Below are positions 12,966-36,567 of a DNA stretch of 38,867 nucleotides, one piece after another (the stretch's first letter is position 1; each line of letters begins with the position of its first letter). The DNA is from a virus. Taxonomy: Duplodnaviria > Heunggongvirae > Uroviricota > Caudoviricetes. The notes beneath the pieces were generated by a model. It was not told the DNA's origin. It saw only the letters and a program-made list of their open reading frames with translations, and searched no databases. The translations under genes and the position numbers were made by a program. The stretch covers positions 1 through 38,867 of the IMG/VR virus record IMGVR_UViG_2526164634_000034; one strand, given 5' to 3'.

Positions 12966-14294
12966 CTGAGAGATCCCCTCATAATTTCCCCAAAACGTAA
13001 CCATGTGTGAATAGATTTTGAGTAAGCAGGGTTGCAGCCACGAGTGAGTCTTCCCTTGTTATTGTGTAGCCAGAATGCCGCAAAACTTCCATGCCTAAGC
13101 GAACTGTTGAGAGTACGTTTCGATTTCTGACTGTGTTAGCCTGGAAGTGCTTGTCCCAACCTTGTTTCTGAGCATGAACGCCCGCAAGCCAACATGTTAG
13201 TTGAAGCATCAGGGCGATTAGCAGCATGATATCAAAACGCTCTGAGCTGCTCGTTCGGCTATGGCGTAGGCCTAGTCCGTAGGCAGGACTTTTCAAGTCT
13301 CGGAAGGTTTCTTCAATCTGCATTCGCTTCGAATAGATATTAACAAGTTGTTTGGGTGTTCGAATTTCAACAGGTAAGTTAGTTGCTAGAATCCATGGCT
13401 CCTTTGCCGACGCTGAGTAGATTTTAGGTGACGGGTGGTGACAATGAGTCCGTGTCGAGCGCTGATTTTTTCGGCCTTTAGAGCGAGATTTATACAATAG
13501 AATTTGGCATGAGATTGGATTGCTTTTAGTCAGCCTCTTATAGCCTAAAGTCTTTGAGTGACTAGATGACATATCATGTAAGTTGCTGATAGGTTTCCAG
13601 TTTTCCGCTCCTAGGTCTGCATATTGTACTTTTCCTCTTACTCGACTTAACCAGTACCAACCCAGCTTCTCAACGGATTTATACCATGGCACTTTAAAGC
13701 CAGCATCACTGACAATGAGCGGTGTGGTGTTACTCGGTAGAATGCTCGCAAGGTCGGCTAGAAATTGGTCATGAGCTTTCTTTGAACATTGCTCTGAAAG
13801 CGGGAACGCTTTCTCATAAAGAGTAACAGAACGACCGTGTAGTGCGACTGAAGCTCGCAATACCATAAGCCGTTTTTGCTCACGGATATCAGACCAGTCA
13901 ACAAGTACAATGGGCATCGTATTGCCCGAACAGATAAAGCTAGCATGCCAACGGTATACAGCGAGTCGCTCTTTGTGGAGGTGACGATTACCTAACAATC
14001 GGTCGATTCGTTTGATGTTATGTTTTGTTCTCGCTTTGGTTGGCAGGTTACGGCCAAGTTCGGTAAGAGTGAGAGTTTTACAGTCAAGTAAGGCGTGGCA
14101 AGCCAACGTTAAGCTGTTGAGTCGTTTTAAGTGTAATTCGGGGCAGAATTGGTAAAGAGAGTCGTGTAAAATATCGAGTTCGCACATTTTGTTGTCTGAT
14201 TATTGATTTTTGGCGAAACCATTTGATCATATGACAAGATGTGTATCTACCTTAACTTAATGATTTTGATAAAAATCATTAGGGGATTCATCAG
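12966..14294 (-). mobile_element. IS10 (1329 bp) with 9-bp target-site duplication TACTTGGCA
   Basis: Terminal sequences CTGAGAGATCCCCTCATAATTTCCCC (12966..) and ...AATCATTAGGGGATTCATCAG (..14294); identical 9-bp direct repeats at 12957..12965 and 14295..14303. Confidence 0.95.
12979..14187 (-). CDS. IS10 transposase
   Basis: 402 aa, MCELDILHDSLYQFCPELHLKRLNSLTLACHALLDCK..., matching the recalled IS10 (Tn10) transposase. Confidence 0.95.
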   Translation of the reverse strand: MCELDILHDSLYQFCPELHLKRLNSLTLACHALLDCKTLTLTELGRNLPTKARTKHNIKRIDRLLGNRHLHKERLAVYRWHASFICSGNTMPIVLVDWSDIREQKRLMVLRASVALHGRSVTLYEKAFPLSEQCSKKAHDQFLADLASILPSNTTPLIVSDAGFKVPWYKSVEKLGWYWLSRVRGKVQYADLGAENWKPISNLHDMSSSHSKTLGYKRLTKSNPISCQILLYKSRSKGRKNQRSTRTHCHHPSPKIYSASAKEPWILATNLPVEIRTPKQLVNIYSKRMQIEETFRDLKSPAYGLGLRHSRTSSSERFDIMLLIALMLQLTCWLAGVHAQKQGWDKHFQANTVRNRNVLSTVRLGMEVLRHSGYTITREDSLVAATLLTQNLFTHGYVLGKL

Positions 14295-21424: not shown

Positions 21425-22086
21425 GCGCCTTCTCCCTGTACCTGAATCAATGTGAGGTTTCCGCAGAACACTGCGCCAGTATCGATATACATCTGGTTGG
21501 CAAATTTGAGTGGTTTCACTGCTGGCGTATGACCAAAGATGAACGTGTCCGCGCCTTTGATTTCTTTCACGATCCCGTCTTGTGAGTTGCTGATTCGTTC
21601 GCGGTTCCAGATTACCTGCTGATGATCAACTGGCTTTCCAAACTCGTATTTATCACAAGGATAATCGGCGTGGCAAATGACATATTTTTTATCTTTGCTC
21701 ACCAGTTCGATGATTAACGGAAGTTCTTCTGCTTTATGGGCAAGAACTTTAGCCAGAGTCTCTTTGTCGTAATCGAGATTAAAGAACCAGCCACCGCCAT
21801 TAAGCAGCCAGTGATTAACGTTTCCACGCTCTGATAAGCCATCAATCATCATTTGCTCATGGTTTCCACGCACAGCTCTGAACCAGGGGAATGTGATTAA
21901 TTCCAGACATTCGACGTTCTCTGTACCGCGATCAACCAAATCGCCAACCGAGATGAGCAGGTCTTTTTTGGTGTCGAATCCAATCGTATCCAGTTTGTTC
22001 ATCAGGTTCGTGTAGCATCCGTGCAGGTCGCCAGCTACCCAAATATTTCGGTATTTGCTGCCATCAATTCTTTCGTAGATATTCAT
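21421..22086 (-). CDS. Ser/Thr protein phosphatase (lambda orf221, NinI)
   Basis: 221 aa with metallophosphatase motifs GDLHG, GDLVDRG, GNHE. Confidence 0.9.
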
Positions 22087-29548: not shown

Positions 29549-29569
29549 GGTGAGGGTAATGACTCCAAC

Positions 29570-30073
29570 TTATTGATAGTGTTTTATGTTCAGATAATGC
29601 CCGATGACTTTGTCATGCAGCTCCACCGATTTTGAGAACGACAGCGACTTCCGTCCCAGCCGTGCCAGGTGCTGCCTCAGATTCAGGTTATGCCGCTCAA
29701 TTCGCTGCGTATATCGCTTGCTGATTACGTGCAGCTTTCCCTTCAGGCGGGATTCATACAGCGGCCAGCCATCCGTCATCCATATCACCACGTCAAAGGG
29801 TGACAGCAGGCTCATAAGACGCCCCAGCGTCGCCATAGTGCGTTCACCGAATACGTGCGCAACAACCGTCTTCCGGAGCCTGTCATACGCGTAAAACAGC
29901 CAGCGCTGGCGCGATTTAGCCCCGACGTATCCCCACTGTTCGTCCATTTCCGCGCAGACGATGACGTCACTGCCCGGCTGTATGCGCGAGGTTACCGACT
30001 GCGGCCTGAGTTTTTTAAATGGCGGAAAATCGTGTTGAGGCCAACGCCCATAATGCGGGCGGTTGCCCGGCAT
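29570..30073 (-). CDS. insB: IS1 transposase InsB
   Basis: 167 aa, [37 protein letters not shown]... Confidence 0.95.
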
Positions 30074-30267
30074 CCAACGCCATTCATGGCCATATCAATG
30101 ATTTTCTGGTGCGTACCGGGTTGAGAAGCGGTGTAAGTGAACTGCAGTTGCCATGTTTTACGGCAGTGAGAGCAGAGATAGCGCTGATGTCCGGCGGTGC
30201 TTTTGCCGTTACGCACCACCCCGTCAGTAGCTGAACAGGAGGGACAGCTGATAGAAACAGAAGCCAC
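29992..30267 (-). CDS. insA: IS1 InsA
   Basis: 91 aa, [40 protein letters not shown]... Confidence 0.95.
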
Positions 30268-30333
30268 TGGAGCACCTCAAAAACACCATCATACACTAAA
30301 TCAGTAAGTTGGCAGCATCACCTGAGGTGAGAT

Positions 30334-31523: not shown

Positions 31524-33593
<2,070 letters not shown>

Positions 33594-33742: not shown

Positions 33743-34711
33743 ATGAGTGAAGTAACAGATTTAGTTGTTATTGAAAAAGCAAATGCAATGACTGTATTTC
33801 AGTCTGCCGACCAGATTGAAGAAATCCTTCAAAAGGTTGAACGTGAAGTTATGTCCTTTGTGCCTGATATCACAACGGCAAAGGGCAGAAAGGAGATCGC
33901 TTCTCTGGCGTATAAAGTTGCGCAGACGAAAACATATCTCGATGGTCTTGGCAAAGACCTTGTTGCTGAACTGAAGGAAATTCCAAAGCTAATTGATGCC
34001 AACCGCAAGACAGTGCGCGATCGCCTTGATGAACTGAAAGCCAAGGCGCGCCAGCCTCTTACTGATTATGAGGAAGAACAGGCGCGGATTAAAGCCGAAG
34101 AAGAAGCTAAGGCAGCAGCTGAAGCTCTCGCAAAGCAAATTGAGTCTGACCATGAAATAGCGATTTTGATGGATCGCGAATTTGACCGCCAAAGAGAAGA
34201 GGCAAGACTCAAAGCGGAGCAGGAAAAGCGAGAGCATGAAGAACGCTTAAAAAGAGAAGCTGAAGAGAAAGCCAGAGCAGAAGCCGAAGCAAAGGCAAAA
34301 GCCGAAATTGAAGCAGCAGCAAGGCGAGAAGCAGAAGCTAAGGCCGCAGCGGAACGTGCAGAGCGTGAACGCATTGAAGCCGAGCAACGAGCACAGCGCG
34401 AAGCAAAAGAGGCAGCAGAACGAGCTGAAAGAGAAAAGCAGGCAGCAATTGAAGCAGAACGCAGAAAAGCACAGGAGGAGGCTGAACAAATCCGTCGCGA
34501 TGCTGAAGCAAAAGAGCAAGCCAGAATAGCAGAAGAAAAAAGAATCAAGGACGAAGAAGAGCGTAGAGCAAAGGATAAAGCTCACCGGAAAGACGTAAAT
34601 AACAAAATACTTGCTGACCTTATCAAGGTTGGTGCATCAGAAGATGTTGCTAAAAATATCATAACAGCCATCGTAAAAGGCGAAGTATTCGCAACAAAAA
34701 TAACCTACTAA
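33743..34711 (+). CDS. Hypothetical 322-aa protein with long charged coiled-coil region
   Basis: Structured N-terminal ~100 aa, then about 170 aa of E/A/K/R-rich heptad-like sequence and a short C-terminal domain; preceded by AAGGAGG. Confidence 0.5.
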   Translation: MSEVTDLVVIEKANAMTVFQSADQIEEILQKVEREVMSFVPDITTAKGRKEIASLAYKVAQTKTYLDGLGKDLVAELKEIPKLIDANRKTVRDRLDELKAKARQPLTDYEEEQARIKAEEEAKAAAEALAKQIESDHEIAILMDREFDRQREEARLKAEQEKREHEERLKREAEEKARAEAEAKAKAEIEAAARREAEAKAAAERAERERIEAEQRAQREAKEAAERAEREKQAAIEAERRKAQEEAEQIRRDAEAKEQARIAEEKRIKDEEERRAKDKAHRKDVNNKILADLIKVGASEDVAKNIITAIVKGEVFATKITY

Positions 34712-35260: not shown

Positions 35261-35866
35261 ATGAGCAAAGAATTTTACGCAAGACTGGCAGCTATTCAGG
35301 AGAATCTGAACGCGCCAAAGAATCAGTACAACTCATTCGGTAAATATAAATACAGAAGCTGCGAAGACATTCTTGAAGGCGTTAAGCCGCTACTGAATGG
35401 CCTGTTTTTATCAATCAGCGATGAAGTTGTGTTGATTGGTGATCGGTATTACGTGAAAGCCACGGCAACTATTACCGATGGCGAAAACAGTCATACGGCA
35501 ACCGCCCTTGCACGAGAGGAAGAAAGCAAGAAAGGAATGGATTCTGCACAAGTTACTGGAGCTACAAGCTCTTATGCACGCAAGTATTGCCTCAATGGTT
35601 TGTTCGGCATTGATGATGCGAAAGATGCAGATACCGACGAGCATAAACATCAGCAGAACGCAGCAGCAAAGCAATCAAAACCATCACCTACACCTGAACA
35701 GGTTCTAAAAGCATTCACTGACGCAGCATTGCAGAAAAACACCGTGGAAGAGCTTAAACAGGCGTTCGCCAAAGCGTGGAAGATGCTCGAAGGCACACCG
35801 GAGCAGCACAAAGCGCAGGACGTTTACAACATCAGACGAGACGAATTAGAAGGAGCTGCTGCTTAA
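35261..35866 (+). CDS. erf: Erf single-strand annealing recombinase
   Basis: From the internal ATG: MSKEFYARLAAIQENLNAPKNQYNSFGKYKYRSCEDILEG..., matching recalled P22 Erf. Confidence 0.8.
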   Translation: MSKEFYARLAAIQENLNAPKNQYNSFGKYKYRSCEDILEGVKPLLNGLFLSISDEVVLIGDRYYVKATATITDGENSHTATALAREEESKKGMDSAQVTGATSSYARKYCLNGLFGIDDAKDADTDEHKHQQNAAAKQSKPSPTPEQVLKAFTDAALQKNTVEELKQAFAKAWKMLEGTPEQHKAQDVYNIRRDELEGAAA

Positions 35867-36247
35867 TGGCACATTCGATTACTGTAAGACTAAACAAGCC
35901 CGCAAGAGAGTTTCAGGCCGGGGAAAATATCGGATTCAACATCCGTGCTGGCGTTCAGTATTACGATCGCCAGACAAAAAAGAAAGAATGGACAAACTAC
36001 AGCGCCGTTGTATTTGCCAAGCCGGGAGCCAAGCGGATTACTACCGTAGTGTTCTTGTTGAAGGTGGCATTGTGGAAATTACCGGAGAAACATCAGGGTT
36101 GATGTTTATCAGGGGCAAAATGGTCAATCAATCACTCTTGAATTACTGAATGCAAAGATTGGATTTGCAACTTCAGGAAACAGCCAACAGCAGCAAAGTA
36201 GCAATCATCAAAATCATCCTGTATACGACGATTCCATCCCATTCTGA
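35866..36247 (+). pseudogene. SSB-like gene apparently disrupted by two -1 frameshifts
   Basis: Frame 1 (35866..36102) encodes an OB-fold-like N-terminus; frame 0 continues QADYYRSVLVEGGIVEITGE; frame 2 ends in an SSB-type acidic tail ...PVYDDSIPF (stop 36245..36247). Confidence 0.5.
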
Positions 36248-36270: not shown

Positions 36271-36567
36271 ATGCCGGCGCCTCTGTATGGTGCGGATGAC
36301 CCGCGCCGCTGTTCCGGCAATTCCGTATCGGAGGTGCTGGATAAATTCAGAAAAAACTACGATCGAATAATGTCTCTACCGCAGGAAACGAAAGAGGAAA
36401 AGGAATTTCGCTATTGTATATGGCTTGCAGAGAAAGAAGAACGCAAGCGAATTTACCAGACATCAATCCGACCATTCCGCAAAGCCACATATACCCACTT
36501 CCCTGAATATATCGACCCGCGCCTGCGTAATTACCGCTCACGCTATGGCGCTATCAGTAATGACTGA
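36271..36567 (+). CDS. Abc2-like protein (putative anti-RecBCD)
   Basis: 98 aa starting [22 protein letters not shown]...; position after erf matches P22 abc genes; sequence match to Abc2 is from uncertain recall. Confidence 0.45.

Follow-up and report, generated by a model that had tools for sequence, protein, structure and literature searches.

The window (i.e., the whole 38,867-nt stretch of DNA that we analyzed) was a P22/Sf6-like (Lederbergvirus-type) E. coli prophage, in which the minus strand carried the structural, lysis, nin, and replication genes and the plus strand carried the early-left operon. The early-left operon included a recombination module consisting of erf, a gene for a protein resembling single-stranded DNA-binding protein (SSB), and abc2. 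As shown in Table 1, the two outer genes of the module were intact, and the counterpart of erf was annotated as Erf in phages HK97, Sf101, and HK633. The TAA stop codon of erf (35864 to 35866) overlapped the ATG start codon of the SSB-like gene (35866 to 35868) to form the sequence TAATG (35864 to 35868), and the start codon was preceded by the Shine-Dalgarno sequence AAGGAG at 35850 to 35855. A preliminary description of this DNA had proposed that the N-terminal segment of the SSB-like gene was coupled to erf via TAATG, and the overlap agreed with that proposal.

The SSB-like gene was distributed over three reading frames. Frame 1, which began at the ATG, encoded MAHSITV...AVVFAKPGA followed by the out-of-frame residues KRITTVVFLLKVALWKLPEKHQG and a stop codon at 36100 to 36102. 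The 78-aa open reading frame (ORF) thus ended at 36102, as had been described previously. The second frame encoded QADYYRSVLVEGGIVEITGE, and the third frame encoded NIRVDVYQGQNGQSITLELLNAKIGFATSGNSQQQQSSNHQNHPVYDDSIPF (NIRVDVYQGQ...HPVYDDSIPF), which was followed by a TGA stop codon at 36245 to 36247. Two frame changes were needed to reach the DDSIPF end from the ATG at 35866, just as the preliminary description had read the gene from the sequence. In the case of the third-frame segment, we found no usable start codon that gave an ORF of at least 25 aa. This segment carried a linker rich in Q, S, and N residues and a C-terminal tip of the SSB type.

Table 1. Features of the SSB-like locus and of the surrounding prophage
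Feature	Coordinates	Strand	Basis
IS10, 1,329 bp, 402-aa DDE transposase, in the portal gene	12966..14294	-	9-bp duplication TACTTGGCA
IS1, 768 bp, six bases after the N gene, early-left operon	29555..30322	-	9-bp duplication TGAGGTGAG
IS21-family element, istA (340 aa) and istB (260 aa), early-left operon	~31526..33479	-	Terminal inverted repeats
erf, intact, 201-aa Erf-family single-strand annealing protein	35261..35866	+	Pfam PF04404 ERF, E = 2e-44
Expression signals of the SSB-like gene (Shine-Dalgarno sequence and TAATG)	35850..35868	+	Sequence
SSB-like ORF as it stands, 78 aa (55 native and 23 out-of-frame residues)	35866..36102	+	EHX43659.1
Ancestral segment 1, codons 1 to 54 and two bases of codon 55, ATG frame	35866..36029	+	Alignments A1, A3
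Deletion 1, one G missing between 36029 and 36030	36029..36030	+	Alignments A1, A3
Ancestral segment 2, codons 56 to 75 (QADYYRSVLVEGGIVEITGE), -1 frame relative to the ATG	36030..36089	+	Alignments
Deletion 2, AAA run (AAAA in all intact homologues)	36088..36090	+	Alignments
Ancestral segment 3, codons 76 to 127 (NIRVDV...DDSIPF) and TGA, third frame	36089..36247	+	
abc2, intact, 98-aa anti-RecBCD protein, last gene of the erf-ssb-abc2 module	36271..36567	+	Pfam PF11043, E = 2e-60

In megablast searches, the region matched many lambdoid and P22-like phages at 95 to 99% identity, and the gene order erf, SSB-like gene, abc2 was also found in HK97, Sf101, HK633, and the prophage of E. coli EC102. 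The SSB-like genes of Sf101 (gp26), HK633 (gp35), and the EC102 prophage (WP_016063330) were each a single 384-nt ORF encoding a 127-aa protein that ended in DDSIPF. DNA alignments to these intact homologues confirmed that the window copy carried two 1-bp deletions, as had been suspected, and the 127-aa length of the single-frame homologues spoke against the alternative that the 78-aa frame 1 product was the real protein. When we used tblastn, the intact homologues matched segment 1 at 96 to 98% identity in frame 1 and segment 3 at 96 to 100% identity in frame 2. The 385 nt of the gene in the window were 99.5% identical to the EC102 allele, and the two sequences differed solely by two gaps; there were no substitutions, and the agreement of the three frames with the intact gene is thus not a coincidence.

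Deletion 1 had been placed near 36025 to 36035 in the preliminary description and was located within that range, at 36029/36030. It turned GGAGCGCAAGC into GGAGCCAAGC in a GCGC context that lacked a homopolymer run, and an indel scan revealed it against all five relatives that covered the site. The other deletion had been placed near 36090 to 36100. There was indeed a missing base in this area, and the affected A run (36088 to 36090) was located at the lower edge of the proposed range rather than inside it. The window had the forms GAGCCAAG and GGAGAAAC at the two sites, whereas the undeleted forms were GAGCGCAAG and GGAGAAAAC. The deletions were 58 nt apart, and each shifted the reading frame by one.

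When both bases were restored, the translation was a 127-aa protein that exactly matched the protein of phage HK446, which was present on 200 contigs. The repaired protein had an E value of 1e-75 in the homologue search, and the DNA identity of the whole gene to its gp40 homologues was 96 to 99.5%. Thus, the intact protein belonged to the HK97 gp40 family. A functional member of this family would be expected to have a single uninterrupted ORF of about 123 to 134 aa that ends in a [DE][DE]x[IP]PF tip, and the window copy had no such ORF. Because two frame changes were needed and the ORF halted at 36102, we concluded that the window copy was a pseudogene rather than a functional member of the family.

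We found no Pfam family for the intact homologue, even at E values of up to 1, or for the 78-aa product. The relationship of the intact protein to SSBs was therefore tested through PHROGs, structure prediction, and a fold search. The intact protein matched PHROG 44, which is described as "single strand DNA binding protein," with an E value of 2e-27. The TIGR00621 score of the intact homologue was 15 bits, which was below the cutoff of 53.95, and the only match in a profile search of the PDB was the SSB 4dam, which was likewise below threshold (E = 0.27). Prophages of Escherichia, Salmonella, Citrobacter, Cronobacter, Serratia, and further genera accounted for the 320 relatives found in the homologue search, none of which had a precomputed Pfam domain. 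In alignment A2, an N-terminal domain of some 100 residues and the C-terminal tip were conserved, and the linker between them, which was rich in Q, P, S, and N residues, was variable. The tip was kept across the family as DDSIPF in the short forms and as DDDIPF in longer forms of 138 to 181 aa. E. coli SSB also ends in DDDIPF. A comparison with the E. coli SSB sequence in hhalign gave a probability of 50%.

The structural work was done with an intact homologue (P0001) that shared 98% identity with the repaired protein, and the model and the fold search therefore describe the intact homologue rather than the broken copy. The AlphaFold2 model (pLDDT of 83 and pTM of 0.70) was predicted to contain a beta-barrel, one helix, and a disordered tail, with residues 107 to 127 modeled at low confidence, which was consistent with disorder. 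When the model was compared to the PDB with Foldseek, the best 50 matches consisted entirely of SSBs, whether bacterial or mitochondrial, and PriB proteins; the best E value was 7e-5, the TM scores were 0.4 to 0.55, and the structural alignments had 10 to 18% identity. Remote homology and the predicted SSB-type OB fold supported the view that the intact family is SSB-like. Hence, the SSB-like assignment made in the preliminary description stood with respect to the PHROG 44 match, the predicted fold, and the DDSIPF tip, and it fell short with respect to the Pfam and TIGRFAM thresholds. A 2025 Genome Research paper (PMC12315714) had already given HK97 gp40 the name "SSB-1b" because of its predicted fold, and the paper also noted that the lambdoid Rec-module SSBs, including the gp40 family, were without experimental study. 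Single-stranded DNA (ssDNA) binding and oligomerization of the gp40-type protein are putative, and the "SSB" label is one that we infer.

Among the 51 phage and 581 E. coli records that we compared, none shared the window's frameshifts; the relatives whose annotation was read were mostly single ORFs. The exact pattern of deletion 1 was absent from species-representative genomes and from IMG/VR, and the exact pattern of deletion 2 was absent from IMG/VR. Independent frameshifts of the same gene were found in HF4s, P0086 (L011), P0122, P0054, and P0043. The frameshift in P0122 was a 1-bp deletion located 7 nt upstream of deletion 1, and the frameshift in P0086 (L011, 3001 to 3285) was a 1-bp deletion located 4 nt upstream of deletion 2. 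In addition, the exact 94-aa product that would be expected from deletion 2 alone (P0124) was present on two Logan contigs. The separate frameshifts in other lineages suggested that the gene is lost now and then. Broken alleles were rare beside thousands of intact ones, and the two largest clusters of homologues had 1,653 and 392 members. The gene was found in 579 of 5,426 complete E. coli genomes, and, in a spread sample of 60 records, nearly all alignments preserved its length. At least one complete E. coli genome (H157) and several other E. coli records aligned over 388 nt rather than 387 nt, and they may share a +1 variant that is found in HK97.

The prophage contained additional lesions. 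The portal gene was split by an insertion sequence that we take to be IS10 on the basis of its ends, its length, and its transposase (the Pfam match shows a DDE_Tnp_1 transposase alone), and the alignment to the portal homologue ended at residue 464 of 732. The split portal by itself would leave the prophage unable to form particles. Two further elements, IS1 and an IS21-family element with approximate boundaries that were set by its terminal inverted repeats, were located upstream of erf-ssb-abc2, and both are probably polar on the module. With three IS insertions and point frameshifts, the prophage is defective and decaying. Beyond the right end of the window, the DEC12D sequence continued with an integrase gene followed by sbcB.

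Three further features were observed elsewhere in the prophage. At 22081 to 22083, about 187 bp that included ninH were absent between the ninG-like and phosphatase genes relative to Sf6 and EC102; either a deletion or a mosaic variant could account for this difference. The 661-aa tailspike (41 to 2026, minus strand) was matched by the tailspikes of Sf6 and vB_EcoP-683R2 only near the 5' end of the gene (window positions 1644 to 1994, with 87 to 91% DNA identity); no phage closely matched the receptor-binding part, which suggests that the O-antigen specificity is a different one. Finally, the gene at 33743 to 34711, located immediately upstream of cIII, kil, and erf, encoded a 322-aa protein with a high content of E, A, K, and R residues. 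In relatives, the protein is called "TolA protein" or "Gam antitoxin," and its long low-complexity region accounted for many spurious antisense ORFs.

The preliminary description had left it open whether the missing bases were deletions or assembly errors. If they were errors, the DEC12D gene would be truly intact and both gaps would be artefacts of a draft sequence. The source of the window was indeed a draft whole-genome shotgun contig, one lesion was located within a short A run, and two errors 58 nt apart could mark a locally poor region. However, an exact look-up of the 78-aa product identified GenBank entry EHX43659.1, [quoted passage not shown] and this product requires both deletions because its C-terminal PEKHQG-stop crosses the shortened A run. 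The product was encoded on a 67-kb contig (AIHD01000047.1) of the DEC12D assembly GCA_000250275.2, on a 40-kb contig (JBNDCX010000039.1) of assembly GCA_053258055.1, and on a 2-kb Logan contig of run SRR125865. All three contigs were 100% identical to the window over the shared stretches, and none of them restored a single frame. Their structures differed: the 67-kb contig spanned IS copies, and the 40-kb contig (L009) broke exactly where the IS21-family element ended, starting at window position 33482, just beyond that element. The two GenBank assemblies were 100% identical over 12.6 kb and may come from a single strain or clone; it is therefore conceivable that they share a systematic error. 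The identical double lesion in three assemblies of unlike contig structure and the GCGC context of deletion 1, which offers no homopolymer, argued against such an error. In addition, when the window was scanned for indels against six relatives and for frameshifts by tblastn with all of their ORFs, with about 30 kb of phage DNA aligned, only two disrupted phage genes were identified, the SSB-like gene and the IS10-split portal gene. As the rest of the phage genes were unshifted, the assembly was not generally indel prone. We therefore judged an assembly error to be improbable and the two deletions to be real with high likelihood, a judgment that draws on the recurrence of the double lesion in two GenBank assemblies and a Logan reassembly. 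A different way to rescue the gene would be programmed recoding, in which two -1 ribosomal frameshifts or transcriptional slippage would restore a full-length SSB-like protein. Both needed shifts were in the same direction (-1), and the downstream frames retained perfect homologue sequence and the C-terminal tip. However, there was no X XXY YYZ heptamer in the incoming frame from -30 to +12 nt of either site, where the longest run was 3 nt. None of the homologues in the records compared shared the frameshifts, the closest E. coli match (EC102) lacked both gaps, and the failure to find the deletion patterns in IMG/VR, or that of deletion 1 in species-representative genomes, pointed the same way. 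The perfect downstream sequence can be explained by the recency of the lesions, given the absence of substitutions relative to the EC102 allele. Programmed frameshifting was rejected because there was no slippery site and because the shifts were unconserved among the homologues; in our estimation, it has next to no chance of being correct.

The spacing of the deletions raised the question of whether they arose neutrally. Under uniform neutral decay, with about 30 kb otherwise unshifted, the chance that two indels would fall in the same gene was about 1%, and the chance that they would fall within 58 nt of each other was 0.4%. Thus, the clustering is unlikely under that model. A non-neutral or single-event origin would be selection in the lysogen against a phage SSB made harmful by its host-like tip, or one error-prone repair tract, in place of two independent neutral hits. 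In support of such an origin, the two -1 deletions clustered in a gene and prophage that had no substitutions in the one and no other frameshifts in the other, independent frameshifts in P0122 and P0086 were located within 4 to 7 nt of the window's sites, and the deletion 2-only product existed. In contrast, the rarity of broken alleles and the preserved length of the gene in the spread sample of complete E. coli genomes did not fit this origin, and the frameshifts of other lineages were scattered along the whole gene. Moreover, the gene would already have been killed by the first hit, and the second would add no advantage. A 1% coincidence is also unremarkable in a genome-wide scan that selects oddities. 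We considered a non-neutral or single-event origin to be highly improbable as an explanation of the locus. The specific proposal that the clustered deletions reflect one error-prone repair event, or lysogen selection against a host-like C-terminal tip that competes for SSB partners, was likewise speculative, and we gave it little credence. If it were true, the scattered frameshifts (HF4s, the HK97 C-terminal variant, P0086, P0122, and P0124) would represent recurrent adaptive inactivation.

The locus is very probably an HK97 gp40-type SSB ("SSB-1b") gene that became a pseudogene recently, through two independent 1-bp deletions, in the middle of the erf-ssb-abc2 module of the DEC12D prophage. 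As the frames read, translation starts at the ATG at 35866, yields 55 native residues followed by 23 nonsense residues, and stops at 36102. The product would lack the second half of the OB fold (i.e., the strands past residue 55 in the model) and the DDSIPF tip, and we infer that it is nonfunctional. Specifically, it would presumably be unable to bind ssDNA or to recruit SSB partner proteins. From what is known of the family, the intact protein would coat ssDNA and aid Erf annealing, and its SSB-like tip would engage host SSB-interacting proteins. Loss of the gene fits the relaxed selection that would be expected in a prophage that is presumably unable to make particles or to express its early-left operon in the normal way.

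This is an ordinary pseudogene, and both the kind of event and the SSB-1b family are already known. The practical value of the result is annotation correction only, and no new mechanistic question is raised. EHX43659.1, which is a hypothetical protein in GenBank, should be marked in the database as a frameshifted HK97 gp40-type SSB pseudogene. As the gp40-type SSB family is without a Pfam model, neither the function nor the pseudogene status is recognized by automatic pipelines. The locus is also a clean example of early prophage decay, in which IS insertions and frameshifts are present and substitutions are not yet present.

When compared to known systems, the SSB-like gene was most similar to the genes of the HK97 gp40/Sf101 gp26/HK446 family, which occupy the same slot between erf and abc2 and have the same overlapping start. 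The window copy differed from them by its two private 1-bp deletions and its truncated 78-aa product. The reference HK97 gp40 gene (L001, 1167 to 1556) was itself a variant, with a +1 insertion near the 3' end that replaced DDSIPF with DDSNPILI. In the case of bacterial SSB (PF00436, TIGR00621), the likeness consisted of the predicted SSB/PriB-type OB fold, the disordered linker, and the DDSIPF tip, whereas the intact gp40-type protein was shorter (127 aa compared to 178 aa) and the sequence similarity was marginal. In phage Sf6, the same slot of the module was occupied by a canonical SSB gene (gp27, "SSB-1"), which directly followed erf and was itself followed by an "endonuclease" gene (gp26) and then abc2; this position also supported the SSB identity of the intact family. 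The closest parallels to the event itself were in HF4s and Brookers. In HF4s (L002, 1161 to 1556), an A was lost from an A6 run at the equivalent of window positions 35975 to 35980, and the gene was annotated as "ssb protein" together with a small ORF. The SSB-1 gene of Brookers is another frameshifted SSB pseudogene (PMC12315714). As in the window, 1-bp indels split the SSB gene of the recombination module in both phages, but the sites differed, and the window carried two lesions.
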